From an uncultured virus (IMG/VR IMGVR_UViG_3300033066_001354) (lineage: Duplodnaviria > Heunggongvirae > Uroviricota > Caudoviricetes), in the IMG/VR virus record IMGVR_UViG_3300033066_001354: DNA of 40,580 bases. The stretch is one strand, 5' to 3'. How positions within the stretch are numbered: position 1 is the first letter of the stretch; every line of letters begins with the position of its first letter. A program made the translations under genes and the position numbers. Of this stretch, positions 1 through 39,338 are shown in pieces. The notes beneath the pieces were generated by a model. It saw only the letters and a program-made list of their open reading frames with translations, was not told where the DNA came from and ran no database searches.

Positions 1-11
1 GAGCCAGAACT

Positions 12-638
12 ATGAGTTTTAACGTTTCAGAGTTTATAAGCGAGTCTAATTTAATCGACCCGCAACCTTCGTTCGACGAGACTTACATCATTCCTGGTTC
101 CAAACCTGGAGAACCGTTGTACGACAACCACTTAAGGGCATATGAACTGGCTCTTGAAAAAATCGTCACACTTTTGACGGCATCTGACGTTCTCGACATC
201 CATAGGGAGCTTACACGTGGGATTGATTTTTTTGAGTATACAGGCATGTCTGGTCGCTGGCGCAAAGTGAACGTCCACATCAGGAACACTGACATCACTT
301 TTGCACCGTCCTACATGGTACACTGGCTGATGAACGATGTTTGGACACCGTTTTACGCAGACTGCATCAAAGAGGCTGAAAACGCGGACGATGAGACAAA
401 AGAGCGGTTGGCGTATGAAATCCACGACGTGTTCGAATGTATCCATCCTTTCATTGACGGAAACGGCCGAACAGGGCGTGTTCTTTTGAACGCGGCAAGA
501 GTAAAAATGGGACTAAAACCAATCGTAATCTTGTATAAAGAAAGGCAGGAGTATTACTCTAAAATCAATGCCTTTAGAGCATCAAAATATGACACCATTG
601 TGTCCAAATACAACAAACATAAAGAGGCTTCGACATGA
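12..638 (+). CDS. Fic-domain protein (AMPylase family)
   Basis: Intact canonical Fic motif HPFIDGNGRTGR. Confidence 0.93.
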   Translation: MSFNVSEFISESNLIDPQPSFDETYIIPGSKPGEPLYDNHLRAYELALEKIVTLLTASDVLDIHRELTRGIDFFEYTGMSGRWRKVNVHIRNTDITFAPSYMVHWLMNDVWTPFYADCIKEAENADDETKERLAYEIHDVFECIHPFIDGNGRTGRVLLNAARVKMGLKPIVILYKERQEYYSKINAFRASKYDTIVSKYNKHKEAST

Positions 639-1339
639 CAACATATTACGTAACACCGTCCGACATTACGTTCCTTTGGAGCGACTGTCCCAAATGTTTC
701 TATCAGAAAGTCGTTCAAAAACGACCGCGCCCTGCTGGAATCTTTCCAAAAGTTTTCAACAAAATCGACAATGCGATGAAAAATTGCTACGTCGATAAAA
801 ACCTTCGAGAAATCAGCCCGGGTTTCCCAGACGCTGTGTTCAAATATCCAGAACAATGGGTACAGAGCAAACCACTAGTAATTACTGGCAAAGACATCCA
901 AATCGTTTTTCGCGGCAAGGTGGACGGCATTCTGGAGTATGCTGAGCTTGGTAGCGACGGGAAGCCTGTGTGTGGCGTGCCAGACCTAAAAACTGCAATC
1001 GTAGACGATTCTGTCCTGCAACTTTATGGACTCGCGCTCCATACTTATTGCTACTGTCTTGAAAACCCAGCGCCTGGAGAATTTGCCGCCTCCAATGTCG
1101 AAAAACTTGGACTTATCGTCTTCGAACCCAATGACTTTGAGCACAACCCTGGAGAAGAACCCATGCTTCACGGAGAGCATCATTGGATTGAATTTGAAAA
1201 AGACATGGAATCGTTCAAGTCATGGATGAAGACTTTGGCCAAAGTTCTTAGTCAAGAGTCTCCGCCAGAAGCAACTGAAAGCTGCGCGTATTGCAACTAT
1301 TTCAACACGCCGACAGTGAATCAGTTGGTGAACGCCTAA
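635..1339 (+). CDS. PD-(D/E)xK nuclease, Cas4/RecB-like
   Basis: N-terminal CPKC, GKVD...DLKT catalytic pattern, QLY helix and C-terminal CAYC; ATGA overlap with the Fic gene. Confidence 0.8.
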   Translation: MTTYYVTPSDITFLWSDCPKCFYQKVVQKRPRPAGIFPKVFNKIDNAMKNCYVDKNLREISPGFPDAVFKYPEQWVQSKPLVITGKDIQIVFRGKVDGILEYAELGSDGKPVCGVPDLKTAIVDDSVLQLYGLALHTYCYCLENPAPGEFAASNVEKLGLIVFEPNDFEHNPGEEPMLHGEHHWIEFEKDMESFKSWMKTLAKVLSQESPPEATESCAYCNYFNTPTVNQLVNA

Positions 1340-1341
1340 CG

Positions 1342-1869
1342 ATGGAACGAAAAATCTATCGTGGCGAGAATATGTCGCTCTTGGTGTTGGGACGGGCACA
1401 CGTCAAGACCCAAGAGCACACCCCAGACGAGCCACACGTCCTTATTTCGATAACCGACCCTTATAACGGACAGGTGAGAGACGATTGCGGCCCAGCAGAG
1501 CTTTATCCGTCAGAACAAAGGCTTGACACTTTGAGGTTGGAATTTTTTGACATTGACGAACCTATCGGTAATTTGCCAATGATGACTGAAGAACAAGCTG
1601 AATCTGTCGTGGGCTTCATTAAAAAATGGCAGGACAAAATTAGTCTTATTGTCGTCCATTGTGAAGCTGGAATAGCGCGTTCGGCGGGCGTGGCGGCAGG
1701 GCTGTCTAAATGGCTTAACGGCGAAGATTCGTACTTTTACACAACTTTCAATCCGAACTCATGGGTGTACCACAAGGTTCTTTTCGCCGTTTATGGCGAC
1801 CCGTGGGTTGAATACAGGACAGAACAGACACAAGAAGATGAACATATCGAACCGCCATTTTTTTCTTGA
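1342..1869 (+). CDS. Protein-tyrosine/dual-specificity phosphatase family protein
   Basis: CX5R P-loop VHCEAGIARS; ATG 1342 follows the upstream stop (1372 is an alternative start). Confidence 0.85.
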   Translation: MERKIYRGENMSLLVLGRAHVKTQEHTPDEPHVLISITDPYNGQVRDDCGPAELYPSEQRLDTLRLEFFDIDEPIGNLPMMTEEQAESVVGFIKKWQDKISLIVVHCEAGIARSAGVAAGLSKWLNGEDSYFYTTFNPNSWVYHKVLFAVYGDPWVEYRTEQTQEDEHIEPPFFS

Positions 1870-2428
1870 CAACACAATACTTGAAAAAGCTGGAGCTTTA
1901 CAGTATGGTCATTTTCTGCTGACAAGCGGAAGGCACAGTGACAGGTACATAGAAAAATTCAGGCTTTTAGAACAACCAGAACTTGTAAAGCAAGCCTGTC
2001 GCTTTTTGACTGCAAAATCCTCTTTTTGTCACAGACTTGATTTTGACTTAGTTGTGGGGCCAGCCACAGGAGGCATGATTGTGGCTTTCGCTATGGCAGA
2101 GCACAATTCGAAGAGCGCTGTGTATGTAGAACGAGAAAACGGACAAATGAAATTACGTCGCGGTGCTATGATACCGGAAAATTCCAAAGTTATGATTGTG
2201 GACGATGTTCTCACGACCGGGCTGTCTCTTCAAGAGGTCGAAAAAGTCGCCCTCGATTGTGGCGCTACAGTCGTAGGTGCCAGCGTACTTGTGGACAGGA
2301 GTGAAAAACCGATAGAGTTCTCCTTTCCGTATTTTTCCGCGTACCGTGTCGAAGCCGAATCTTTTGACGAGTCGGAGACACCAGAATGGCTTTTGAGCAC
2401 GCCAGTCACAAAGCCTGGAACAAGATGA
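1838..2428 (+). CDS. pyrE: Orotate phosphoribosyltransferase
   Basis: GHFLLTSGRHS N-terminal motif and PRPP-binding loop VMIVDDVLTTG; start uncertain (1793 or 1838). Confidence 0.92.
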   Translation: MNISNRHFFLDNTILEKAGALQYGHFLLTSGRHSDRYIEKFRLLEQPELVKQACRFLTAKSSFCHRLDFDLVVGPATGGMIVAFAMAEHNSKSAVYVERENGQMKLRRGAMIPENSKVMIVDDVLTTGLSLQEVEKVALDCGATVVGASVLVDRSEKPIEFSFPYFSAYRVEAESFDESETPEWLLSTPVTKPGTR

Positions 2429-2946
2429 GTCTTCTTTTCTTAGACATAGACGGCGTTCTGAACGACCACAGGACTTTGCCGAACGGTTACGCACAAATGA
2501 AGTACAAGTGCGTAAAAGAGTTTTGTAGAATTTTGGACACTTGCCCTGACACTGAAGTAATAGTGTCCTCGGCTTGGCGATACATGATGATTTCAGACCC
2601 ACCGTGCATCAATGAAAGAGGGTTGGAATATTTGATGTGCCTGTTCGGTGCTCCATACGGGTCTGTCAACGGTCGTATATGCGGCACTACGGCGTCTGAC
2701 GAAGAAGCGTGTCTGACGCTCGGCATTATGGATGACGGCGCTGAGTTGGACTATGAATGGCTTAAAGACAATGGCTGTCTTCTTCGACGAGAACAAATTG
2801 TCTCTTATGCCGATGGACGACCGTTCGTCGTGCTTGACGACCTGGACTTAAAAATGCCAGAACTCGTAAAGACTGACGGCAACGTGGGATTGACAAAAGC
2901 ACTCGCAGACAGGGTGATAAAAGCTTTACAGTCTATTCAAGACTAG
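2425..2946 (+). CDS. HAD-superfamily protein (phage RNA-repair-associated HAD type)
   Basis: LFLDIDGVLN motif I, SSAWR, and FVVLDD motif; ATGA overlap with pyrE. Confidence 0.82.
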   Translation: MSLLFLDIDGVLNDHRTLPNGYAQMKYKCVKEFCRILDTCPDTEVIVSSAWRYMMISDPPCINERGLEYLMCLFGAPYGSVNGRICGTTASDEEACLTLGIMDDGAELDYEWLKDNGCLLRREQIVSYADGRPFVVLDDLDLKMPELVKTDGNVGLTKALADRVIKALQSIQD

Positions 2947-3118
2947 GGCTAGATTTCTTGATTGGGACTGCTTTTTCAGCGTTTTTGAGTTCTATCGCCT
3001 TCATTGCATATTGATGGGCTTCGAGAGCAAGCCTTCCTGAAGCAATGTGTTCATGACGCACTTCTAGGAATTTCACCACAAGTCTGTCGTACAATTTTTC
3101 GTCTTGTTTATTCAACAT
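2933..3118 (-). CDS. Hypothetical protein
   Basis: Small ORF (MLNKQDEK...) coupled to the upstream minus-strand gene. Confidence 0.5.
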   Translation of the reverse strand: MLNKQDEKLYDRLVVKFLEVRHEHIASGRLALEAHQYAMKAIELKNAEKAVPIKKSSPSLE

Positions 3119-3386
3119 TGAGTTCTCCGTGCATGTTTGTGAAGGCTGGAGTCCCGTCGCCCATCCAAGCACCAAGACAGTTGAAGCTTAAATACTCCTC
3201 TGCCTCCTCTCGGTCGGCGCAACCTTTGGCAATCAAGATGTCGATACACTTTTGCCAATCATAGAGCAAGACCGAGTTCATGCCGAAACGCTCGACAATA
3301 CCTACCACGGCATTGTCAAAGTTGTCCATTTTTAGAGCCTCGTGGTTGATTTCTTCAATCAACTCTATGATTTCGCCTGACTTCAC
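3108..3386 (-). CDS. Conserved phage hypothetical protein
   Basis: MDNFDNAVVG...EEAEEYLSFNCLGAWMGDGTP resembles a widespread small phage protein; preceded by the TCCTCA-type promoter. Confidence 0.7.
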   Translation of the reverse strand: MKSGEIIELIEEINHEALKMDNFDNAVVGIVERFGMNSVLLYDWQKCIDILIAKGCADREEAEEYLSFNCLGAWMGDGTPAFTNMHGELNVE

Positions 3387-3422
3387 AGAAGTATAGCGGT
3401 TGAAACTTCGGTTTTGAGGATA

Positions 3423-4310
3423 TTATCCCACTTCAATGTCAGCGACAATGACTTCTTCATGGCTTGTGCTCCTACTCATGTGCGTCACTTGTCCGTTACC
3501 ATCAACAATGTTAGTCCTACCGTCAAAGTACATCCCTGGCTCAACCCACCCACACTGATACGGTCGCACTATAGAAAGCCCCGATTCTCTGGCGCGTTCT
3601 TTCTGCGGCATGTCTTTCACAATGTCGAACGGATATCCAGGGAAAGGTCTCCAGCCGCCAGAAGGAGCGCACACAAATTCTGCACCCTTCTCTTTTAAAG
3701 TTTTCACAACGTCTGTAAAATTCAAGTCGTAACAGACACAAACCCCTATGACGCCCTCAGATGTCGTTACAGGCTCGATAGTCTTTGAAGCCGAAAACCC
3801 CCAACTTTGCTCAATCGGCATCAAATGTGTCTTACCGGGCTCTCCAACAAGACTTCCGTCTTTGTCAAATACCATACTAATGTTTTCAAACCCGTTAGAA
3901 GTCCTTGTGTAAAGACTGCCAGCCACAATAACGACATCCAACTCTTTTGCGACTTTGGCAAATGTACGCTTCATTATCCGCTTATATTTAGATTGGGACA
4001 TCCATTCTCCCATTTTGTTCAACTTCACGACAGAGAAAAACCACTCGGTCAACTGGTCAATCCAGCTTCGCACGCCCATAGTCGCTACTACGCGGTGACG
4101 GGCGTTACCCCAGTACAAAGCCTCGACACGAGGTGCCTCTTTACACCATGACAGCCACATGCTAAGTCCTTCAGGGAACACTATGACTTTCGCGCCAGAC
4201 TGCTTGGCAATGTGACTAAGGTGGAAAACCTTTTTGTAAAAGTGAGACTCTGAGGCGCAAGACTCAGCGTTAGGCTGTATCGCCGCAACAGTAATCGAAC
4301 GTTTCATCAA
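3423..4310 (-). CDS. Carbon-nitrogen hydrolase (nitrilase superfamily)
   Basis: Glu-Lys-Cys triad contexts VIVFPE, GKTHL and VCVCYD. Confidence 0.88.
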   Translation of the reverse strand: MMKRSITVAAIQPNAESCASESHFYKKVFHLSHIAKQSGAKVIVFPEGLSMWLSWCKEAPRVEALYWGNARHRVVATMGVRSWIDQLTEWFFSVVKLNKMGEWMSQSKYKRIMKRTFAKVAKELDVVIVAGSLYTRTSNGFENISMVFDKDGSLVGEPGKTHLMPIEQSWGFSASKTIEPVTTSEGVIGVCVCYDLNFTDVVKTLKEKGAEFVCAPSGGWRPFPGYPFDIVKDMPQKERARESGLSIVRPYQCGWVEPGMYFDGRTNIVDGNGQVTHMSRSTSHEEVIVADIEVG

Positions 4311-4414: not shown

Positions 4415-5710
4415 ATGAAAGTCTGCATCATAGGCGCTGGATATATTGGATTGACGACAGCGGCTTGTCTGGCTGAAATCGGGCATGAAGTCGTTTGTTG
4501 CGATAAAGACGAGCAAAGGATATCTCTTTTAAAAAAGGGGATAGTGCCAATACACGAGCCAGGGCTGGCAGAATTGGTAAAAAAGCACACCAAAAAAGAA
4601 AAAGAAAGCCTGTTCTTTTCACCTCATATCAAAGAGGCTGTCACATACTGCGATGTTGTTTACATGTGCGTCAACACCCCGGTATTGCCAGACGGCTCTC
4701 TGAACATGGCGAATATTTGGAACGTTTCACAGACGATTGGCGAGAACTTAAACGACTATAAGGTCATCGTGCAAAAATCCACAGTACCAATGGGGACTGC
4801 AAAAAAAGTAAGACAAATCATTGCCGCACACTGTCCAGAAAGCGTAGAGTTCGACGTGGCCGCTAACCCGGAGTTCCTTCGAGAAGGAAACGCCATCTTG
4901 GACTTTTTAAACGGAGACCGCATCGTAATCGGTTGCGAGTCTTGGCGCGGAAGTGAAAAACTTATCGAACTGTACGCCGCTTTACCGTCCAGGGTGATAC
5001 TCACAACGCTGGAATCGGCCGAAATGATTAAGTATGCCTCTAACGCGTTTCTAGCAATGAAAATTTCGTATATCAACTCGATTGCCAGAATATGTGAAAA
5101 AACTGGCGCAGACGTGAAAGAAGTGGCTATAGGAATGGGATGTGACCACAGGATAGGAGAAGAATTCCTTAACGCAGGGCTTGGATATGGCGGCAGTTGT
5201 TTCGGCAAAGACAATAACGCCTTGATTCACTTGTCCAGCAAACTTGGCTTTGATTTTGAAATTCTGAAAGCTGTCGAATCAATCAACAACCAGCAACCGA
5301 TTTACTTTGTTGAAAAATTGAAACAACGCCTTAAAGGGTTGAAGAAAAGGCGCATAGGCGTGCTGGGGCTTGCCTTCAAGCCGAACACAGACGACATCAG
5401 AGACGCAAGGGCCACCAGGCTGATACAAATTCTCAAACAAGAAGGTGCTATCGTCCAAGCCTATGACCCAAAAGCCATGAAAAACATGTCAGCCGTACAT
5501 TACGACATCACTTACTGCGGCTCGGCATATGAGGCGGCAAAAGATGCACACGCAGTTATCCTGGTGACAGAATGGAGCGAGTTTTTAAGCCTTGATTTTG
5601 AAATGCTCAAGGCTGTCATGAAATCACCAATCCTGTTTGACGGCAGAAACCTCTACGACCCAATAGAAATGAAGTCAAGCGGAATTGAATACTATGGACT
5701 TGGGCGCTGA
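4415..5710 (+). CDS. ugd: UDP-glucose/GDP-mannose dehydrogenase family (UDP-glucose 6-dehydrogenase)
   Basis: GAGYIG Rossmann motif, KSTVP, NPEFLREG, GYGGSCFGKD catalytic Cys, GLAFKPNTDD, DGRN. Confidence 0.96.
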   Translation: MKVCIIGAGYIGLTTAACLAEIGHEVVCCDKDEQRISLLKKGIVPIHEPGLAELVKKHTKKEKESLFFSPHIKEAVTYCDVVYMCVNTPVLPDGSLNMANIWNVSQTIGENLNDYKVIVQKSTVPMGTAKKVRQIIAAHCPESVEFDVAANPEFLREGNAILDFLNGDRIVIGCESWRGSEKLIELYAALPSRVILTTLESAEMIKYASNAFLAMKISYINSIARICEKTGADVKEVAIGMGCDHRIGEEFLNAGLGYGGSCFGKDNNALIHLSSKLGFDFEILKAVESINNQQPIYFVEKLKQRLKGLKKRRIGVLGLAFKPNTDDIRDARATRLIQILKQEGAIVQAYDPKAMKNMSAVHYDITYCGSAYEAAKDAHAVILVTEWSEFLSLDFEMLKAVMKSPILFDGRNLYDPIEMKSSGIEYYGLGR

Positions 5711-7434: not shown

Positions 7435-8097
7435 CTACTTCTTCATGACCTCTGAGTCTTCAGGCTCTTCTTCTTCTTCTTCGTCACCAAGCGGCACGCG
7501 TATATTGTTGCAATACATCAGTTCTTGCAATTTTTGCATAGCCTCGGCAGCAAGCGAAGGACTGCCCATAAACTCCGCGTCTATGATTTCCCTTACGAGC
7601 AGAACAACTTTGTCGCCCACGTCGCTTTCCACACCGTCGTCACGGATACCATACTTCTTTAAGTCAATTTTGCTGAAGTCGATGCTGTCCAGATTCACGA
7701 CGTGTGTGCTGACGACTCTCGGTCGGCGGCAAAGCGTCACTTCAACAAGACTCTGCTTGTCCTTGGCGATTCCGACAGACCATCCGCAACCCATGTGCTT
7801 TTCTTTATAATCGTAAAGCGCCTCGGCACCATAGCGCGTGAGAGCGATATCGCCACATAAATTTTCACCGTCAACATCCAACTTGAACACATATCCGAAA
7901 AACGGCCAAGTGATAGGCTGATGCTCCAACAGTATCGGGATATAGTCAGAAAAATTGTGAGCCCATTGAAAAAACTGGTGTCGGTGGATAGCACCGAATT
8001 TGTCAGTGTAGTTACCCGTCTCGCAGATTTTTACATCACGCAAGGTCACAACAATCGGAGCCAAAAGTCCACAGGGTGGGACGGGTGTCAATTTCAT
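7435..8097 (-). CDS. Prohead-protease-like protein (HK97/Mu-I clan), tentative
   Basis: IPILLEH...GWSVGI...LVEVTLCRRP resembles the His/Ser motifs of phage maturation proteases. Confidence 0.45.
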   Translation of the reverse strand: MKLTPVPPCGLLAPIVVTLRDVKICETGNYTDKFGAIHRHQFFQWAHNFSDYIPILLEHQPITWPFFGYVFKLDVDGENLCGDIALTRYGAEALYDYKEKHMGCGWSVGIAKDKQSLVEVTLCRRPRVVSTHVVNLDSIDFSKIDLKKYGIRDDGVESDVGDKVVLLVREIIDAEFMGSPSLAAEAMQKLQELMYCNNIRVPLGDEEEEEEPEDSEVMKK

Positions 8098-8426
8098 ACT
8101 TTTAAGTGTCCAAGCGGTTGTTTAATGCTTTCAGAAAGAAGGTGCAAGTAGCGAAGGTTCTCTGTTTTAGCGATGACGGATGCCTCAGCCCGTGTCATTT
8201 CGACCAATTGTAGGGCGTCCTTCTTAGGGACGCTGAACCATGACTTACTGTCGTGGTGGGACAAGAAGCATGCGAGTCCCAAACCAGTGTCAGAGTAAGA
8301 AATTTTAGCCCACGACCCGTTAGAACACCTTGCCACAAAAAACTTGTCCGGGAATTGTTGTATCTCATCGACAATAGTGTCGTGGTCTCTTTTTAGCTTG
8401 CTGGTGATTTCAAAAGCATTGTTCAT
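8094..8426 (-). CDS. Hypothetical protein
   Basis: ORF with 4-nt overlaps on both sides. Confidence 0.6.
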   Translation of the reverse strand: MNNAFEITSKLKRDHDTIVDEIQQFPDKFFVARCSNGSWAKISYSDTGLGLACFLSHHDSKSWFSVPKKDALQLVEMTRAEASVIAKTENLRYLHLLSESIKQPLGHLKV

Positions 8427-9661
8427 TCTGCAACGTCCTTGACTAACTTAGCAAACCGTCTTTTACCGACTTTGATGTGTTTGCCAACAAGACTGCCTAC
8501 AGGCACGAAAGACATAGGGTCTTCTATCCTCGACCCGTCTATTTCAACCGCGCCCTCTCTTATTAGACGACGAGCCTCGCTGTTCGTTCGAGCCATGCCC
8601 AATTGTACCATCATCGCAGCCACACTTACATCTCCCTCGCCTAAAACAGACAAGTCTTTTTCGGGCGCGTGAAGTTTCCAGTCACGATTGGAAAAAGTCT
8701 CGCGAAAAGTCATTTCAGCGATGCACGCGGCAGTCTTGTTAAAGCATAGTTCTACAATTTTGGAAGCCAAGTCGTTTTTCTTGTCTTTGTTGTGAATTGA
8801 GGAAAAGGCAGGCACAAGACTAAAGGCGTCAAACCAATCGTCCATCGCTTCGTCAGAAATAGACATGACCTTGCCGAAAATGTCGGACGGACTGTCGCGC
8901 ACAGATATGAAATTGCCCAACGACTGAGACATCTTTTTTACACCGTCCAAACCAACGAGCAAGGGTGTGAGCACGACAGTCTGAGGCTTCATGCCTTGCG
9001 AAGACATGACGCTTCGCCCTAGCAAGCAGTTCAATCGCTGGTCGTTGCCGCCAAGCTCAACGTCACAATCCACGAACACAGAGTCACGAGCCTGTAAAAT
9101 TGGGTAGAGAGCTTCATGCGCACCGACAGGAACACCGCTCTTCAAACGAGACGAGAAGTCTCCGCGCTCCAAAATTTGAGCCACAGTGACAGTGGAGCAC
9201 ATAGAAATAAAATCGACGGCGGACATTTTGTCCCACCAAGATGAGTTCCACCTTACTTCAGTCTTGTCATTGTCCAAAAACTGCATAATTTGTGACAGGA
9301 CTTCATTGGCGTTTTTCTTCACTTCTTCGCGGGAAAGCTGTTTCCGAGTAGATGATTTGCCGCTTGGGTCGCCAATAGTGGCAGTCGCGTCACCAATCAC
9401 AAGAACGACAGTGTGACCAAGCGATTGAAGCTTTTTCAGGCGCAACAATGGTACCATCCACCCTAAATGGACTTCTGTGGCGGTGGGGTCGATACCGAAC
9501 TTGACGCGCAAGCTTTTGTCGGGGCGTGCCAAAGTTTTACTGAGCAACTCCTCCACTGGGCTGGCAGAGTCTGTCACGATAACACAATCGCTGAACACCT
9601 TCAAAAACTCACGCGCACGCTCTACTTCACTGGCGGCAACGCTGATTGAACTCACACCCAT
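8423..9661 (-). CDS. tyrS: Tyrosyl-tRNA synthetase
   Basis: VKFGIDPTA, HIGH-equivalent HLGW, YPILQARD, ELGGNDQ, KMSQS, and C-terminal S4 domain (SEARRLIREGAV...KVGKRRF). Confidence 0.96.
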   Translation of the reverse strand: MGVSSISVAASEVERAREFLKVFSDCVIVTDSASPVEELLSKTLARPDKSLRVKFGIDPTATEVHLGWMVPLLRLKKLQSLGHTVVLVIGDATATIGDPSGKSSTRKQLSREEVKKNANEVLSQIMQFLDNDKTEVRWNSSWWDKMSAVDFISMCSTVTVAQILERGDFSSRLKSGVPVGAHEALYPILQARDSVFVDCDVELGGNDQRLNCLLGRSVMSSQGMKPQTVVLTPLLVGLDGVKKMSQSLGNFISVRDSPSDIFGKVMSISDEAMDDWFDAFSLVPAFSSIHNKDKKNDLASKIVELCFNKTAACIAEMTFRETFSNRDWKLHAPEKDLSVLGEGDVSVAAMMVQLGMARTNSEARRLIREGAVEIDGSRIEDPMSFVPVGSLVGKHIKVGKRRFAKLVKDVAE

Positions 9662-21187: not shown

Positions 21188-21326
21188 CAACGTTTGTATA
21201 ACTGAAACGACACACGCCCCGACATAAACATCGGACGGACGAAGGCGCTAAAGAGAACATCACTCTTTGTCTTCGCGAGACATATCCGAGACAGACGGAC
21301 GTGAGCAGTCAAGAAAGGAAAAACAA

Positions 21327-22286
21327 ATGAGTAAAAAAATCCCGATGTTCGAAACAACTGAACCTTACGTGCCGATTGGCAGGGAATTGCTTCTTGAAGA
21401 CACTCCAGACCCAGACACTGGACTTTCGCTTTACCACAGAGACGTGGGCTGTAAAGCTTATGCCATATCAAGAAGAGGACAAATCCCTCTTCATGTTGTC
21501 GAGCCAGAGTCGATTATGGTGCCCTCCTATGAAATTGGATGCAGACCTTCAATTAAAAGGAACGAAAAAAGAAGTTGCCCCTACAATTTAGAAGAGCGGG
21601 CGGACTTCAGGGCCCGCGACTCAATTGGTAGACTTGAAGACAGCGAGGTGTTAAAAGTTATCAACGCCGCTATACCTTCCGACCACCAGATTTCTGTAAG
21701 TGGTTTTTTGCAACCCGAAAACGTTCTGACCGCTTTCGGACTGATTGAGTCACACGACCTTACACCGCGCAACGTGGTCATGCACCCAATGAGATATGCA
21801 GAAATGAGAATGTGGGAGCATGACGAGTTTTATGAATATCCTAGTAAATCTGAGAAGAAACACCGAGCAGCGTTTTACGACGCGAAAGTGTTCACATCCA
21901 CCATGTGCCCTAAAAACGCTGTGTACGTTTTGGCAGACCCTAAATACGTCGGGGTGATTGTTGACCACAGCGATGTTGAAACATCGCAGTACGCCGAGGA
22001 CGAAAAACAAAGAGATGTCAACGTCTTGTCAAAAACACTTGGGATTGCAGTTGTGAACAATTATGCACTAGTAAGAATTTTACTAGAGGGAATAAAGTTC
22101 CAGGGCTGGGGGACGGAAGAGACACCAAAGCCTGACAACGAACATTTAAGAGAGCAGGCTGTTGCGAGGATTGAATCATTTGAGTCACAAAAGACAAATC
22201 CTAAAGAACAAGCTCCCAAGAAAAAGAAGTCTTGGTGGCAAAGGTGGAAAGAGTTCAGGGAGTACGACCTGAAACAACACCGCTAA
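21327..22286 (+). CDS. Diverged major-capsid-protein (HK97-fold) paralog
   Basis: Y.RDV...ISRRG...VPSYEI...RARDSI...EDSEVLKVI...LQPEN...VMHP..Y recalls large-phage MCPs; SD-like AAGGAA upstream; charged C-terminal extension. Confidence 0.65.
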   Translation: MSKKIPMFETTEPYVPIGRELLLEDTPDPDTGLSLYHRDVGCKAYAISRRGQIPLHVVEPESIMVPSYEIGCRPSIKRNEKRSCPYNLEERADFRARDSIGRLEDSEVLKVINAAIPSDHQISVSGFLQPENVLTAFGLIESHDLTPRNVVMHPMRYAEMRMWEHDEFYEYPSKSEKKHRAAFYDAKVFTSTMCPKNAVYVLADPKYVGVIVDHSDVETSQYAEDEKQRDVNVLSKTLGIAVVNNYALVRILLEGIKFQGWGTEETPKPDNEHLREQAVARIESFESQKTNPKEQAPKKKKSWWQRWKEFREYDLKQHR

Positions 22287-25990: not shown

Positions 25991-26012
25991 TGTTATATAC
26001 GTTGCGCCTGCA

Positions 26013-26258
26013 TCAAGTTGAGGATTTTCCGTGCCGCCAGTTGCCCGCTATCAATTCACCGCCTGGGTAGACCGCCATCTCGTCGCCAAGCGTGCAGAGG
26101 ACAGAATCGCCCGGGTGCGTGTCCGATTCGACAAAGTAAACCTGTCTCTTCTTGTAGTCTGGCTGGTTCGTGGCTTCCACGGCTTCGTACACCTGCCCTT
26201 CGTTAAGAACGATGTCAGTCCCGCTGAGCTTCACCGTCTGGAGCATTATGACTCTCAT
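26013..26258 (-). CDS. Hypothetical protein
   Basis: ATG 10 nt after the GTATA box. Confidence 0.75.
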   Translation of the reverse strand: MRVIMLQTVKLSGTDIVLNEGQVYEAVEATNQPDYKKRQVYFVESDTHPGDSVLCTLGDEMAVYPGGELIAGNWRHGKSST

Positions 26259-27032: not shown

Positions 27033-27062
27033 CGTGCGCCCTTATTTGTCCAAGCATTAAAT
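27033..27062 (+). repeat. dif/cer-like 30-bp site 1
   Basis: CGTGCGCCCTT ATTTGTCC AAGCATTAAAT. Confidence 0.9.
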
Positions 27063-27065
27063 TAC

Positions 27066-27347
27066 AGACGACGGCGAAGGGCTTTTCTGCGCCGTCCGCC
27101 GTCGTGATACATTTATGTCGCTGTGAGCTTTGAGTCGGTCAGAGTCGCCTTTGACTCTTACGTTTTTGGTCGTAGGACGCTTTTTCGTTCGCGTCAGTTG
27201 TGTTCCTTGGACGGGTCGCGTATCCGTCTGTCGGTGTTTGCCGTTGTTTGAGATTAAAGGGGTTGCTCACAGTTTACGCTTTAGCTCGTCTTCATGGCAC
27301 CCCTCCTGTTTTCTGTCTTGCCTGTCCTCTCTGCGATTGTCCCGCAC
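27066..27347 (-). ncRNA. Candidate structured RNA (may include micro-ORFs)
   Basis: Own promoter; CTGTGAGC/GCTCACAG closing stem enclosing four short hairpins; terminal hairpin 27068-27105. Confidence 0.5.
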
Positions 27348-27435
27348 TCTTATATACGGGGTTCGTCCGTTGGTTTGAGGAATGAGCCGCTTGCGTCAGT
27401 CGAGTCCTTTGCTTTTCTTTCGTTTCGCGTCCCAT
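27292..27435 (-). CDS. Small basic hypothetical protein (47 aa)
   Basis: ATG 10 nt after GTATA box; reads through the next promoter. Confidence 0.45.
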   Translation of the reverse strand: MGRETKEKQRTRLTQAAHSSNQRTNPVYKSAGQSQRGQARQKTGGVP

Positions 27436-27531: not shown

Positions 27532-27561
27532 CGTGCCCCCTTATTTGACCAAGCGTTAAAC
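27532..27561 (+). repeat. dif/cer-like 30-bp site 2
   Basis: CGTGCCCCCTT ATTTGACC AAGCGTTAAAC. Confidence 0.9.
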
Positions 27562-27586
27562 TCCAGGATTTTCACCCTGGAGTTTT
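27558..27586. terminator. Intrinsic terminator (bidirectional-type)
   Basis: AAACTCCAGG...CCTGGAGTTTT abutting site 2, downstream of the 27599-28078 gene. Confidence 0.7.
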
Positions 27587-28078: not shown

Positions 28079-28114
28079 GAATATATACCTGTCTGGCTGA
28101 AAACTTTGAGGAAA

Positions 28115-28372
28115 ACTGAAGCGACCGTCTATCTAACTACCTGTCTGTGCCTACTGACTAGCTTTCAGCGCAGACAACCACTGACCTTACCTTACCAGAC
28201 CTAGCGTACTATCAAAAGTTTCGCCCTCCGAGCTTCAATTCACGAAGTCTATAGGTCACCTCGTCTCTCATCCAGTGTCTGCTGGAACCAAGACGGTCGC
28301 TTTTAGTCAGTCAAAGCTACCTTTCCTATCATCACCGCAAGCGGTGGTTACTCAGCGGGCTTCTCGACTGAC
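28115..28372 (-). ncRNA. Candidate ~255-nt highly structured RNA
   Basis: Predicted +1 coincides with the first base of a 5' stem GTCAGTC/GACTGAC; 12-bp long-range helix AAGCGACCGTCT/AGACGGTCGCTT (28291-28302 with 28119-28130); no minus-strand ORF in the track. Confidence 0.7.
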
Positions 28373-28407
28373 AATAGTATATTGTCATAGGCGGAAGTTT
28401 TGAGGAA

Positions 28408-28437
28408 GTTTAGGACTTGGGCAAATAAGGCGGCACG
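28408..28437 (-). repeat. dif/cer-like 30-bp site 3 (inverted)
   Basis: Reverse complement CGTGCCGCCTT ATTTGCCC AAGTCCTAAAC. Confidence 0.88.
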
Positions 28438-28494
28438 TCCCATGTTTCCTCAAAAGTGGACGCCAGACAAGTATAGTCCTGTCTGGCGTTTTTG

Positions 28495-28662
28495 TCACCG
28501 TCTTCCCATTCTTCGTTGCTTCTTGCTGAGGTGTTTTTGGGGAGGTCGGAACTTTTGCTGTCTGTCGCTCCGTTTGAGGTCTTCCATCATTTTGATGTCG
28601 CTGGGATTGATTCCGAGTCCGCCGAGCATTCCGAGTGTGAGCAAAAGTGTGTTCCTTGCCAT
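28495..28662 (-). CDS. Hypothetical 55-aa protein (not in ORF track)
   Basis: MARNTLLLTLGMLGGLGINP...KKQRRMGRR; ATG 10 nt after GTATA. Confidence 0.7.
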   Translation of the reverse strand: MARNTLLLTLGMLGGLGINPSDIKMMEDLKRSDRQQKFRPPQKHLSKKQRRMGRR

Positions 28663-28678
28663 GTCTATATACTAAATT

Positions 28679-28975
28679 TCAGGATGGTTTTGAGGATTTC
28701 GACGGGAGTTTTACTCCCTTCAGGTGTTTTTTTGCACAGTCTGCGCCAACTTCGTACATACTGTAAACATCTTCGTCGGCGTTTTTGTCAAAGTCCACAA
28801 TTTCGCCGTCAATATGGTTGAGCATCACACTGAGCGCAGTCTTTAGGTTGACTTCTCGACCACAACAAATGCAATAGTTCAACGGTGTTCCTATTTCCGT
28901 CCTTTTGTTCCACCCTGTCTTTTTGCGGACTTCTTGAAGTAGTCCAGTGTGTTCTTTCATGTCCGGGTAGTTCAT
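28679..28975 (-). CDS. Hypothetical zinc-binding protein
   Basis: CICCGR...VGADC. Confidence 0.7.
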   Translation of the reverse strand: MNYPDMKEHTGLLQEVRKKTGWNKRTEIGTPLNYCICCGREVNLKTALSVMLNHIDGEIVDFDKNADEDVYSMYEVGADCAKKHLKGVKLPSKSSKPS

Positions 28976-29130
28976 TTGAGCACCTTGGGCGGCGAGACTC
29001 CGATGACACCTTCAATATGGACGACATTGCCGCATTTTTTGCAGTCGAACAAAATTCCGTATCTCAAACCTCGCGGTTTTCCTTTCGGGACTTCTCTGAC
29101 TGCTGGTGCGCTACAGTGTGGGCATCGCAT
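28972..29130 (-). CDS. Zinc-ribbon micro-protein, 52 aa (not in ORF track)
   Basis: MRCPHC...DCKKCG; ATG 10 nt after GTATA. Confidence 0.7.
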   Translation of the reverse strand: MRCPHCSAPAVREVPKGKPRGLRYGILFDCKKCGNVVHIEGVIGVSPPKVLK

Positions 29131-29167
29131 GGATATATACGCCTCTCAGCGGGTAATTTGAGGATTC

Positions 29168-29608
29168 TTAGACGAACCCGTAGTTTTTGCGGAGTTTCTT
29201 TGCATCGACCCGTGCCATGAGGTCTTTCTTCGTCACGTCGTCAGACGCGTAGAAAGTCAGTCCGAACGCCGAACGGATATAACCAATCTCCCTTCCAGTT
29301 TCGAGGTATTTGACAGCAAAGCCATAAAGCGCGTCCTCTGCCTTTTTGTTGCAAGCGATGACGCAACGGGTCTCGCCGCCGTCTCTGTTGAGTTGGTCAA
29401 CAATCATCACGTCAGAACCAAGAAAGAGGACTCCCATCGGTGCTGTCGCTTTAGGATTGATGACTTTACTGGCGTCTTCAAGAGCCTCGTCCACTTTGGC
29501 GACGACTTCGTTATAGTCGTTAACCTGGTCGATGCTTCCGATGGACAGTCCCCAATTTCGGGCTTCGAGCAGAGCGTCGGCTAGTTTGGCTTCGAGAGCG
29601 GTAGGCAT
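29168..29608 (-). CDS. Hypothetical protein
   Basis: ATG 10 nt after GTATA. Confidence 0.8.
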   Translation of the reverse strand: MPTALEAKLADALLEARNWGLSIGSIDQVNDYNEVVAKVDEALEDASKVINPKATAPMGVLFLGSDVMIVDQLNRDGGETRCVIACNKKAEDALYGFAVKYLETGREIGYIRSAFGLTFYASDDVTKKDLMARVDAKKLRKNYGFV

Positions 29609-29648
29609 GTTTTTATACTCTGGTGGATGGAAAATTTGAGGAAAAATC

Positions 29649-29678
29649 TGTGCGCCCTTTTTTCACCAAGCGTTAAAT
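29649..29678 (+). repeat. dif/cer-like 30-bp site 4
   Basis: TGTGCGCCCTT TTTTCACC AAGCGTTAAAT. Confidence 0.88.
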
Positions 29679-29681
29679 TGC

Positions 29682-30029
29682 AAAAAAGAAGAAGCCCAGC
29701 GCCGTTTCTGACACTGGACTTCTCATAGCGCTTCGGGGCGACCGCATCCCTACAGTTTCCTCTGTTAACCTGTCCAAGCCTTCCCTCTACGGTGGAGTTC
29801 TTTTTAACGGCTATTGATACCAGGGTCTTTGAGGACTCCACTACTAAGCCACAGAGTCAGTTTGGTGGACTTCGCTTCGGTTACCAGCCTCTACCGCACT
29901 ATTGTGTGCGCTCTGTGGTGATTTTGTTTTCTGTCTTGAGGCTGTCCGAGTCCGTTTGGTAAGACTTCGCCAGGGTTACCAGTCCTGACCGCGATATCTC
30001 ACAATTTCGCGCTCTTCTTTCCTCTCTTC
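29682..30029 (-). ncRNA. Candidate ~350-nt RNA with tandem kissing-loop motif
   Basis: Promoter without a start codon at +1; two covarying units (29948-30015 and 29849-29918); ends in GAAGTCCAGTGTC/GGCGCTGGGCTTC hairpin plus U-tract. Confidence 0.75.
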
Positions 30030-30067
30030 TCCTATATACGCACCTTGTTCGGAGGTTTGAGGAAAAG

Positions 30068-30304
30068 TCAGTTGACTGTCTGGGCGTTCGGGTCGCGTCC
30101 GTTCACCATGAACAACTCATAAGCGAACAAGCGGGACTCTGGCAGTTCGCCTGTAGCCCACTGTTTGTACCTGTCAGACACGCCGTCCTTACGCTTCCAC
30201 ATTTTGCCGCCACAAAGGTAGTGATGACGAAGGGCGCGGTCTTTCTCAGCGTTGGTGTAGTAACGGGGAGTCTCATCAACTAGCTGGATGATTGCAGTAG
30301 GCAT
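30068..30304 (-). CDS. Hypothetical protein
   Basis: Promoter-linked leaderless ATG. Confidence 0.75.
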   Translation of the reverse strand: MPTAIIQLVDETPRYYTNAEKDRALRHHYLCGGKMWKRKDGVSDRYKQWATGELPESRLFAYELFMVNGRDPNAQTVN

Positions 30305-30308
30305 GAGT

Positions 30309-30578
30309 TTATATCAAGCTGTCTGGAGAATTTGAGGAAACGAAGTCGTGCAAGTGTTGCAACTGTAAAGACCTGTCCCGCTCTCTTATGTCTTTGACGA
30401 CTAAAAGCCTGTCCATTTCGTGCCAAGAAACCAAGTCCCAAAGAGTCTCCACTCTTGCCCATCTTTTGCCCTCAGTCTCCCATGTTGGGGTAGTGACATA
30501 TCGGACTACTCCGTAGAACTTTCCAGTGACTCCCCACTCTACGATGTTTCCAGCTTTTACTGGGTCATTATGCCGCAT
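30309..30578 (-). CDS. Hypothetical protein (SH3/KOW-like beta pattern)
   Basis: VKAGNIVEW...GVV; coupled to the upstream gene. Confidence 0.6.
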   Translation of the reverse strand: MRHNDPVKAGNIVEWGVTGKFYGVVRYVTTPTWETEGKRWARVETLWDLVSWHEMDRLLVVKDIRERDRSLQLQHLHDFVSSNSPDSLI

Positions 30579-30843
30579 CGTCAAGCTTCGCCCTTTCAAA
30601 CGCTTCCCAGGTTTCGACGTAGCCCTTGCCGTTCACCCAGATTTTGTCAAAATCGTAATCGTCGGCACAGACTTCAGTGACATTGTTGCCAGTCGTGTCC
30701 ACAGACTTTTCGATGGCTTTCACGACGGCGGTGATAATTTCGTCCAAGTGTGAGTGTTTACTGTCGTAAATCTTGAAGCCGTTGAAATAGACCGCATTGT
30801 AATCGCAGTCCCCACCGTTCACTACAATAATATCGTTAGCCAT
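30568..30843 (-). CDS. Hypothetical protein
   Basis: Promoter-linked leaderless ATG. Confidence 0.75.
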   Translation of the reverse strand: MANDIIVVNGGDCDYNAVYFNGFKIYDSKHSHLDEIITAVVKAIEKSVDTTGNNVTEVCADDYDFDKIWVNGKGYVETWEAFERAKLDDAA

Positions 30844-35112: not shown

Positions 35113-35162
35113 ACACAGGTAAAAATCCTCAAACTTAGCCGGTGATAGGGTATATATCTGTT

Positions 35163-36047
35163 ATGGCGGCAAAGCAGACAGCATACGAAGCAATCACAGC
35201 GACCATCATTGCAGCCCTTGAAGCTGGCGAAGTGGCTTGGCAGAAGCCCTGGAATTCGAAAGCGCCGTGCAACGCAATCACAGGCAAAGCCTACCGTGGC
35301 GTCAATCCGTTTTTGCTCGTCCTTGCGTCAAAGTCGTACACTGACAATCGCTGGTTGACGTTCCCACAAGCTAAAGAACTAGGCGGAAGTGTCAAGTCGG
35401 GCGAAAAGGGAACTTGGATTGTCTACTCATCCCAAATCCCTACCAAAGAAGACCCTAAAAAGTCGTTTTGGCTTATGAGGCGGTACTGTGTTTTCAACAT
35501 CGAACAGTGCGAAAACTTGGAGAAACTTCCGCCGCTTGAAGTCGTCAACCAAGACACTGACCCGAACATTCTAGCCGAAGAATTGGTGGCTAAGTACACA
35601 GACGCGCCGCCCGTGACCTTTGGTGGCGGCATAGCTTGCTACCGACCTTCAACCGATGAAGTGAACATGCCCAACCGCGCCGACTTCAACGGAAACCCAG
35701 AATTTTATTCAACATTGTTCCATGAGTTCGCACATTCTACAGGACATGAGAAACGACTCAACCGAAAGTCACTCACGGAACATGACGGGTTTGGAGGGTA
35801 CAACTACTCTAACGAAGAGTTGGTGGCGGAGTTCGCCGCCGCGTTCATGATGGCAGAATGTGGTATGGACATGCCTGTCAAAGACAATACCGTAGCCTAC
35901 CTGCAAAGTTGGATAAAAGCCTTGAAGAACGACCCGACACTAGTGGTCAAAGCGGCAAGTGCGGCACAAAAGGCGGCTGATTACATGAAGGGCGTGACGG
36001 TCGCCAAGGACGCCGAAGATACCGAGAAAGAAACGGTTGCGGCATAG
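35163..36047 (+). CDS. ardC: ArdC-family antirestriction / ssDNA-binding protein with zincin-like domain
   Basis: WQKPW, N.ITGKAYRGVN, WLTFPQA..LGGSVKSGEKG, VFNIEQ, HEFAHSTGH...RLNR, EELVAE, YLQSWI. Confidence 0.92.
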   Translation: MAAKQTAYEAITATIIAALEAGEVAWQKPWNSKAPCNAITGKAYRGVNPFLLVLASKSYTDNRWLTFPQAKELGGSVKSGEKGTWIVYSSQIPTKEDPKKSFWLMRRYCVFNIEQCENLEKLPPLEVVNQDTDPNILAEELVAKYTDAPPVTFGGGIACYRPSTDEVNMPNRADFNGNPEFYSTLFHEFAHSTGHEKRLNRKSLTEHDGFGGYNYSNEELVAEFAAAFMMAECGMDMPVKDNTVAYLQSWIKALKNDPTLVVKAASAAQKAADYMKGVTVAKDAEDTEKETVAA

Positions 36048-38995: not shown

Positions 38996-39014
38996 GTGTA
39001 TATACCTGTCTGTG

Positions 39015-39338
39015 TCAAAAATTTGAGGAATTTTGCTCTGCTTCCAGCAAATGCTTTGTCGAAATCAGTTCCTTAATTCTGTTTTCACGAGACAGCTTCC
39101 ACGCGTCAAGGTCTTCTAACGCTTTTTCATAAGCGTCTGCGCGTTTGTCGTAATAGTCTTTATTCCAATGCGAGGAATAACAGGAAGTCACCTTGTCGGT
39201 GTCGCGGTCAGAAAACTTCATGACATGAGACAGTTTTTCATCATAACCAATGAACACCAGCTTAGAAATTGATTCTGGTGCGCCGTCGAGCCCGCGCTCT
39301 ATCTTCCAAAACTTTTGACCAATGGTAGGATTGACCAT
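39015..39338 (-). CDS. Hypothetical protein
   Basis: Start re-assigned (MVNPT...) by promoter position. Confidence 0.7.
   Translation of the reverse strand: MVNPTIGQKFWKIERGLDGAPESISKLVFIGYDEKLSHVMKFSDRDTDKVTSCYSSHWNKDYYDKRADAYEKALEDLDAWKLSRENRIKELISTKHLLEAEQNSSNF

Follow-up and report, generated by a model that had tools for sequence, protein, structure and literature searches.

The window, as we call the whole stretch of DNA analysed here, is the 40,580-nucleotide (nt) IMG/VR record IMGVR_UViG_3300033066_001354, from an uncultured Caudoviricetes phage. On its minus strand, between a gene ending at 30068 and an ATG at 29608, there is a 460-nt stretch without a credible open reading frame (ORF). 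A preliminary description, made from the letters of the sequence, had placed here a promoter-to-terminator RNA with two tandem covarying units, and all the strings that it quoted are present on the minus strand, including, beyond the two units, GTGGAGT (29841-29835) and ACTCCAC. In our analysis the stretch very probably holds a real structured RNA gene, with a promoter in front, two copies of one fold, a third structured domain and a terminator-like hairpin at the end (Table 1). Its non-coding character is borne out as well: no sense-strand ORF of at least 20 codons crosses the units, either in the window or at L012, the related locus described below.

The phage uses a two-box motif, TCCTCAAA-N16-GTATA. 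With up to two mismatches allowed, the window has 37 sites of it where 0.68 would be expected, and none of 100 shuffles reaches 37. There are 31 sites on the minus strand, and 15 of the 37 are perfect matches. A start codon that opens an ORF of at least 40 codons lies 2-8 nt past GTATA at 31 of the sites and exactly 5 nt past it at 23, mostly as CATG. Since start codons stand directly behind so many of them, the motif would represent the promoters of leaderless genes, a conclusion drawn from position, and nearly all the early genes of the phage look leaderless. Further examples of the family are located at 29614-29645, 28084-28115 and 39001-39032 (minus) and at 35126-35154 (plus). The site in front of the RNA (30035-30063, minus) is a perfect match and belongs to the only six of the 37 that have no such start codon within 2-8 nt, so the earlier remark that no start codon is found at the predicted first nucleotide is correct. 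The start of the RNA was placed by analogy with the 23 sites that have a start codon 5 nt past GTATA.

The preliminary description had also stated that there was no downstream gene to regulate. A gene of 146 codons does begin 74 nt past the U run of the RNA, but between the terminator and this gene stands a separate, perfect family promoter, and therefore what that statement implied, an independent transcription unit (30029 to 29682, minus), still stands. A ca. 35-nt element lies directly past terminators and upstream of some family promoters, with copies 80-86% identical at 27033-27067, 27532-27566 and 29649-29683 (minus-strand sense) and an inverted copy at 28407-28450; its role may be that of an upstream promoter element or of a binding site for a protein.

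Table 1. Features of the RNA locus in the window, in the order of transcription
Feature	Position	Strand	Details
Upstream promoter box	30056..30066	minus	TTTTCCTCAAA, exact match; part of the two-box motif
Downstream promoter box	30035..30039	minus	GTATA, 16 nt past the upstream box
Transcription start (predicted)	30029	minus	G, no start codon; by analogy with the spacing in the promoter family
Unit 1	29947..30015	minus	59.4 bits, E 7e-17 (four-unit covariance model R2)
Unit 1, possible outer P1	30024-30021 with 29941-29938	minus	GAGG with CCTC, in the minimum-energy fold
Unit 1, P1	30014-30012 with 29950-29948	minus	GAG with CTC
Unit 1, P2	30011-30007 with 29994-29990	minus	CGCGA with TCGCG, 12 nt between them
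Unit 1, P3	29987-29984 with 29974-29971	minus	CAGG with CCTG
Unit 1, pseudoknot	29957..29981	minus	6 base pairs, TGGTAA (29981-29976) with TTACCA (29962-29957)
A-rich linker between units	29919..29946	minus	contains CAAGACAGAAAACA at 29938-29925
Unit 2	29849..29918	minus	81.4 bits, E 2e-24 (model R2)
Unit 2, P1	29918-29911 with 29856-29849	minus	8 base pairs, CCACAGAG with CTCTGTGG
Unit 2, P2	29910-29906 with 29899-29895	minus	CGCAC with GTGCG, 6 nt between them
Unit 2, P3	29891-29888 with 29880-29877	minus	GAGG with CCGA; two G-C pairs plus G.A and A.G
Unit 2, pseudoknot	29863..29886	minus	4 base pairs, TGGT (29886-29883) with ACCA (29866-29863)
Third structured domain	29725..29845	minus	homologue within another non-coding RNA on OFRM01000049.1
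Intrinsic-terminator-like hairpin and U run	29724-29689 and 29688-29682	minus	15 pairs, loop of 6, then CTTTTTT
Next promoter of the family	29614..29645	minus	perfect (29614-29642); predicted to drive the leaderless 146-codon gene 29608-29168

Two tandem units with one fold

Within the window the two units, each of them ca. 65-70 nt long, are direct repeats of each other over 35 nt (74% identity, at a distance of 95 nt) and share a 20-nt core that occurs twice against 0.12 expected. The folding energy of the whole RNA is -112.3 kcal/mol, against -98.2 +/- 5.6 for shuffled sequences (z = -2.5), and two of 100 shuffles equal it. As a fold is only weakly supported by two paralogues from a single genome, relatives were sought. 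The promoter followed by a leaderless CATG, used as a pattern in metagenomes, gave 35 loci on 28 contigs, and contig OFRM01000049.1 has more than ten distinct promoter sites. Proteins of the early region of the window are 28-72% identical to those of the promoter-pattern contigs, with partly the same gene order, which indicates that the contigs come from related phages. On one of them, OFQZ01000568.1, a second tandem pair was found by blastn and by reading the sequence; we refer to this locus as L012. This contig was examined up to its last 4.6 kb, and OFRM01000049.1 at 3950-33827 (leaving 1-3949 and 33828-43455).

The RNA of L012 has a family promoter with one mismatch, a predicted start at 7484, unit 1 at 7495-7557, an A-rich linker and unit 2 at 7603-7665, whose P1 helix of 11 base pairs (bp) passes without a gap into a U5 run; behind this lies the conserved element that precedes the next promoter. 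The position of the pair is similar, in that window genes 31595-31326 and 31342-30977 have their homologues upstream of it. From family promoter to U5 run there are only the two units, which points to the tandem units as the functional core. A covariance model (R1) built from unit 2 of the window alone recovers the other three units with expect values (E) from 2e-11 to 3e-4. Rebuilt from all four (R2), it gives them 59-81 bits, with no other match at E up to 10 in the 199,740 nt that the window and the relatives make up together. One match of R1 (L044, 17 bits) was rejected, as it lies inside a coding gene that we read by eye as ParD-like.

All four units share the same architecture. P1 varies from 3 to 11 bp and is extended by the outer stem in the unit-1 copies. 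P2 consists of CGC plus two variable pairs, CGCGA/TCGCG, CGCAC/GTGCG (twice) and CGCCC/GGGCG, so the compensatory change noted earlier between the first stems of the window units (the first two of these versions) is real. After the junction bases G-U-(A/C), found in all four units, P3 bears a 7-nt loop, whose positions 2-6 pair in every unit with a strand 9-10 nt downstream. These loop pairings (TGGTAA/TTACCA, TGGT/ACCA, TGGCT/AGCCA and TTGACA/TGTCAA) change in sequence in each unit between the phages. Position by position, the loop has U-A at position 2 and G-C at position 3 in all four units, G-C in three and A-U in one at position 4, U-A in two and C-G in two at position 5, and A-U in two, U-A in one and no pair in the remaining one at position 6. 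Each loop finds its best match in the strand of its own unit (6, 4, 5 and 6 bp), and pairing across units reaches at most 4 bp, except that the two identical loops of the window both make 6 bp with the strand of unit 1. The units of L012 are unable to cross-pair (3 bp), which argues that the loop pairing takes place within the unit.

On the model-made alignment, 84.7% of the 72 paired cells can pair, against 73.5% in shuffles (none of 500 as high), and nine of the 18 pairs are changed on both sides, against 2.9 in shuffles (none of 500 reaches nine). Controls in which the partners were slid gave 30-47% paired and at most one pair with two-sided change. L012 unit 1 is one column out of register in this alignment, where its loop helix is 75% paired; read in the register of the unit itself, the helix is paired throughout. 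P1, P2, P3 and the loop pairing are all kept by compensatory changes in L012, so the claim of two tandem covarying units now extends to four helices in a second phage. Compensatory changes in four helices indicate selection on RNA pairing, rather than on codons or on a DNA site.

Two details of the structure first proposed have to be modified. The complementarity of the loops, TGGT(AA) with (TT)ACCA, is there, but their description as a kiss of two hairpins does not hold equally well. Three of the four units allow the second hairpin (GAAGTC...GACTC), and then only at the expense of P1, whose 3' strand it takes; in L012 unit 2 this hairpin is absent. Since it competes with P1 and is missing in one unit, a classical H-type pseudoknot, which fits all four, is the better description; the geometry is the expected one, with 0-1 nt between the first and the second stem and then a third loop of 9-10 nt. 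The other detail is the GTAGAGG/CCGAAGC stem of unit 2, which is not a Watson-Crick helix (Table 1). It is nevertheless characteristic of its kind. Two kinds of unit match across the phages, unit 1 with a Watson-Crick P3 and unit 2 with GUAGAGG/CCGAAGC, identical in both, and unit 2 is closest to unit 2 of the other phage (47 of 63 columns identical), so the duplication is older than the split of the two phages. Of the paired columns 12 of 26 are invariant, and of the unpaired columns without gaps 15 of 33. The invariant blocks among the latter, GCGGU, GCGA.G and AAC.GACU, are placed at the junctions, as would be expected of a binding pocket or an active site.

A variant 95-99% alike was present in one public run, as a single set of short contigs with a depth below 5. 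It has three differences in 296 nt across 29655-29950, i.e., most of the RNA, and 4/183, 7/165, 8/190 and 35/288 in neighbouring stretches. In the variant, two short stretches near 30247-30324 and 30395-30541 are replaced by diverged or different sequence. Contigs at least 99% alike to 28800-30800 of the window occur in a run labelled riverine metagenome, and those 95-99% alike in one labelled wastewater metagenome.

Third domain and searches for known families

Between the units and the terminator, the window RNA has a third structured domain that L012 lacks. Its homologue on OFRM01000049.1 (L020, 582-405, minus) is 75% identical over 116 nt by blastn (E 3e-14); nhmmer found these two copies, at 175.6 and 161.1 bits, and no further one. 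The consensus fold contains 27 pairs, eight of them changed on both sides, six in the terminator hairpin and two long-range (UCCUC/GAGGA to UCUUC/GAAGA and CCUG/CAGG to CCUU/AAGG). These compensatory changes lie elsewhere than in the GTGGAGT/ACTCCAC stem of the preliminary description, which shows one one-sided change and one break and would cross the long-range pairs. With a third domain missing in L012 and the units missing in OFRM01000049.1, the RNA seems to be modular, with the tandem pair as its core. On the latter contig the third domain forms the end of a promoter-to-terminator transcript of ca. 400 nt (L020, 405-860, minus), the 5' part of which differs from the window RNA and has a possible ORF of 44 codons 8 nt past the predicted start.

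No catalogued family accounts for the RNA, in agreement with the preliminary description. A search with Rfam 15 (4227 families) gave no match at gathering thresholds in the whole window. With E up to 10, the region 29500-30200 matched only one plus-strand model of a human long non-coding RNA, at 15.5 bits against a threshold of 50, which we take as chance. ARAGORN found no tRNA or transfer-messenger RNA genes in the window, and no description of this tandem-unit RNA turned up in literature searches.

Other searches for relatives were equally negative. Neither blastn of the RNA nor megablast of 20 kb of the window against the phage collection gave a close relative. In IMG/VR, the neighbouring proteins and the head protein found no relatives but one weak match of 37 residues (L010), without the motifs, and the promoter pattern found nothing. 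The exact core pattern matched nine IMG/VR loci, all inside unrelated sequence, and a looser unit pattern 16, with a best model score of 14.6 bits; both sets were discarded as chance. A strict three-block pattern of the RNA had no matches in metagenomes. In species genomes the looser pattern matched at least 120 loci, and the best of the 80 scored reached 21.6 bits, against 59-81 for true units, again at chance level; the absence from bacteria holds for that exact looser pattern and those 80 loci.

Genomic setting and other non-coding stretches

The RNA sits in a block of small leaderless genes along with an ArdC-like antirestriction gene (35142-36047, plus), and such neighbours fit an early, host-takeover setting. 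The major head protein (21267-22286, plus) shares 34% identity with its counterpart in Bacillus phage G, and the 146-amino-acid (aa) protein encoded behind the RNA (29168-29608, minus), which has few relatives, is also seen on a contig of 164,580 nt; both point to a large phage. This 146-aa protein has a conserved C-terminal beta-alpha domain of ca. 90 residues and no match in Pfam, PADLOC or NCBIfam. A Foldseek search with its model, a weak test given a mean predicted local distance difference test (pLDDT) score of 71.1, returned no PDB match at E up to 0.001. The non-significant likenesses (E 0.013-0.12) were to the ribosomal-processing protease Prp and to eIF1/SUI1/YciH-type proteins, curious in a phage with leaderless genes. 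A tyrosyl-tRNA synthetase (TIGR00234, 302 bits; 8423-9661, minus) and a UDP-glucose dehydrogenase-like protein (4415-5710, plus) are encoded elsewhere in the window.

Two more promoter-driven stretches are devoid of ORFs. One of them (27065-27352, minus) folds better than shuffles (z = -2.9), ends in a hairpin and has a similar 5' start to that of the RNA studied here, together with the linker string CAAGACAGAAAACA; this exact 14-nt string recurs there at 27320-27307, and no antisense target of it was found within the window. No homologue of this stretch appeared in the fetched relatives. The other (28116-28378, minus) has a homologue on OFRM01000049.1 (L024, 4341-4640), with identities of 78% over 82 nt and of 84% over 43 nt. 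A family promoter precedes that copy as well, and the stretch is probably another conserved phage RNA. Aligned to each other, the three non-coding stretches of the window show no family likeness. Good promoter matches without an ORF behind them were also found at 25996-26024 (minus) and 28447-28475 (plus), the latter overlapping a hairpin and T run (about 28459-28495).

What the RNA might do

We tentatively favour, at somewhat less than even confidence, a trans-acting early RNA, abundant, with each unit binding a factor. Three things speak for it: in both phages the RNA has a promoter and a terminator to itself, its minimal version consists of the two units, and small early genes and an antirestriction-type gene are nearby. 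A structured non-coding RNA of about 340 nt would be transcribed alone from an early-type phage promoter to the intrinsic terminator. At its core, one uncatalogued fold would occur in two tandem copies that go back to an ancient duplication; in each, P1 encloses the 5-bp P2 and the H-type pseudoknot and the invariant unpaired nucleotides would hold the helices together; a portable third domain and the terminator would follow. Acting in trans during early infection, each unit may offer a pre-formed pocket or surface to a host or phage factor, protein or small molecule, as a decoy or sponge.

Several observations weigh against this interpretation. Expression and ends of the RNA are deduced from signals in the DNA, and transcription, action in trans and binding to a partner are all presumed. 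OFRM01000049.1 (3950-33827) lacks the units, which would make them dispensable within the phage group. The covariation comes from four units of two genomes (plus near-identical variants), i.e., few independent events, and the alignment of P1-P3 was fitted by a model of the same structure. Pairing of the loop is not exceptional by chance in single units, being reached in 394, 4057, 2087 and 13 of 5000 shuffles of the 3' junction, and its weight lies in its position and co-change, not in its rarity per unit. Tandem aptamers with invariant junction nucleotides are equally typical of cis-acting riboswitches, and the P1 of L012 unit 2, directly before a U run, would also suit a ligand-controlled terminator.

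The last two points lead to control of transcription in cis, which we consider unlikely. Two tandem ligand-sensing aptamers would set the passage through the terminator, or the promoter-proximal RNA would confer processive antitermination. The put RNAs of phage HK022 act in the second of these ways, making the polymerase resistant to terminators; the glycine riboswitch is an example of an RNA with two tandem aptamers. Like tandem riboswitch aptamers, the phage RNA has two similar, anciently duplicated domains, each with its own P1, covarying stems and invariant junction nucleotides, and the aptamer fold is supported by covariation. In addition, the element begins a few nt from the predicted start in both phages, and in the window a terminator lies behind the units. 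Tandem aptamers are a known riboswitch architecture according to a review (PMC9481103). Unlike them, however, the RNA is without an Rfam match and lies outside a gene leader, with no overlapping expression platform: in both phages the next gene has its own promoter straight past the terminator, so it would not depend on read-through. Neither an antiterminator pairing nor any other alternative pairing conserved between the two phages was found, and the extra domain of 120 nt between units and terminator in the window has no counterpart in L012. Among the 80 species-genome loci scored, of at least 120, the motif is not found in front of bacterial genes.

It is improbable that the units are catalytic, each being a ribozyme of a new class, self-cleaving or of another type, by which the transcript would be processed. 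Phage genomes commonly contain members of several small self-cleaving classes, and a compact junction with a pseudoknot and invariant unpaired nucleotides, in tandem in a phage genome, would suit such an RNA. But no ribozyme model of Rfam matched even at E up to 10, we recognized by eye no core of a known class, and an RNA with its own promoter and terminator has nothing that requires release by cleavage.

The chances also look slim for a special case of the decoy idea, a mimic or relative of a type III antitoxin RNA that would neutralize an RNA-binding toxin of the host involved in abortive infection, like the pseudo-ToxI of phage PhiTE. According to published accounts, a type III locus has a promoter, tandem repeats, a Rho-independent terminator and then a gene (PMC5086642), and the pseudo-ToxI repeats are a phage-encoded RNA that neutralizes a host protein, phages being known to evolve such mimics (PMC3475682, PMC5086642). 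The order is the same here as in ToxI, CptI and TenpI arrays and in the phage pseudo-ToxI, including a terminator between the repeats and the downstream gene, and the units are pseudoknots. Instead of an array of near-identical short repeats, however, there are two diverged junction units of 65-70 nt, with 43 of 72 aligned columns identical, and the family searches detected no toxin of the ToxN, AbiQ, CptN or TenpN type in the same operon. The downstream gene has its own promoter, its 146-aa product lies outside Pfam, PADLOC and NCBIfam, and the structure search with the model of this protein (pLDDT 71) gave nothing in the PDB at E up to 0.001.

We see very little probability that the units are stabilizing 5' modules against 5'-end-dependent decay, the working part being the linker or the third domain. 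Unit 1 does begin 3-5 nt from the predicted 5' end in both phages, and the 14-nt string of the linker is found again in another putative non-coding transcript of the window, but L012 keeps the units without the third domain and without conserving the linker, and the invariant unpaired nucleotides exceed what a stability element needs. That there is no RNA at all, and the locus is a small protein gene (the 86-codon GTG frame at 29841-29581) or a series of repeated DNA sites for a DNA-binding protein, is hardly credible. The frame does exist, and the units are indeed repeated directly, but the frame is located past the units and continues across the terminator and the following promoter into the gene behind. 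Pfam gives no match for it, and L012, where this domain is missing, does not have it. The four helices, moreover, show compensatory changes.

Three other groups of RNAs resemble this one in part. The packaging RNA (pRNA) of phi29-like phages is likewise encoded by the phage behind an early promoter and has a junction; two of its loop segments are complementary and covary from one relative to another, and all of this is similar here. Unlike it, the L012 units are unable to cross-pair and the geometry fits pairing within the unit, the Rfam search gave no similarity, and the head protein has its best match in the phage collection in Bacillus phage G, not in a phi29-like phage. The exonuclease-resistant and dumbbell RNAs of flavivirus 3' untranslated regions are tandem pseudoknotted elements and share with the phage RNA the duplicated modules of junction plus pseudoknot within a viral RNA, but they belong to another kingdom and have no sequence relation; here the modules are at the 5' end of a short RNA, with the pseudoknot strand inside P1. 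GOLLD and ROOL are orphan structured phage RNAs, conserved and covarying, without a known job. The present RNA is like them in these respects and in the swapping of modules between RNAs, as with the third domain, but it is much smaller, has a tandem architecture and does not match those families in Rfam.

The tandem units constitute a new RNA family, the newness being that of the family and not of a function, carried so far by two related uncultured phages. If real, the fold would be a new family outside the 4227 catalogued ones, and a large uncultured phage would have a gene devoted to it; to our knowledge, free-standing tandem aptamer-like RNAs are rare. A bolder version, which we regard as a long shot, is that we are looking at a new class of natural gene-independent aptamer, made in bulk early to soak up a host signalling molecule or immune effector, or alternatively at a new class of self-cleaving ribozyme. 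An aptamer sponge, if true, would be the RNA counterpart of the phage protein sponges against nucleotide-based defence. The analysis also exposes the promoter code of this phage group, early genes that look leaderless almost without exception and at least two further putative non-coding transcripts, and in this way opens its early programme to experiment. The partners of the two putative pockets, once found, could bring to light a mechanism of host takeover or anti-defence that is based on RNA.

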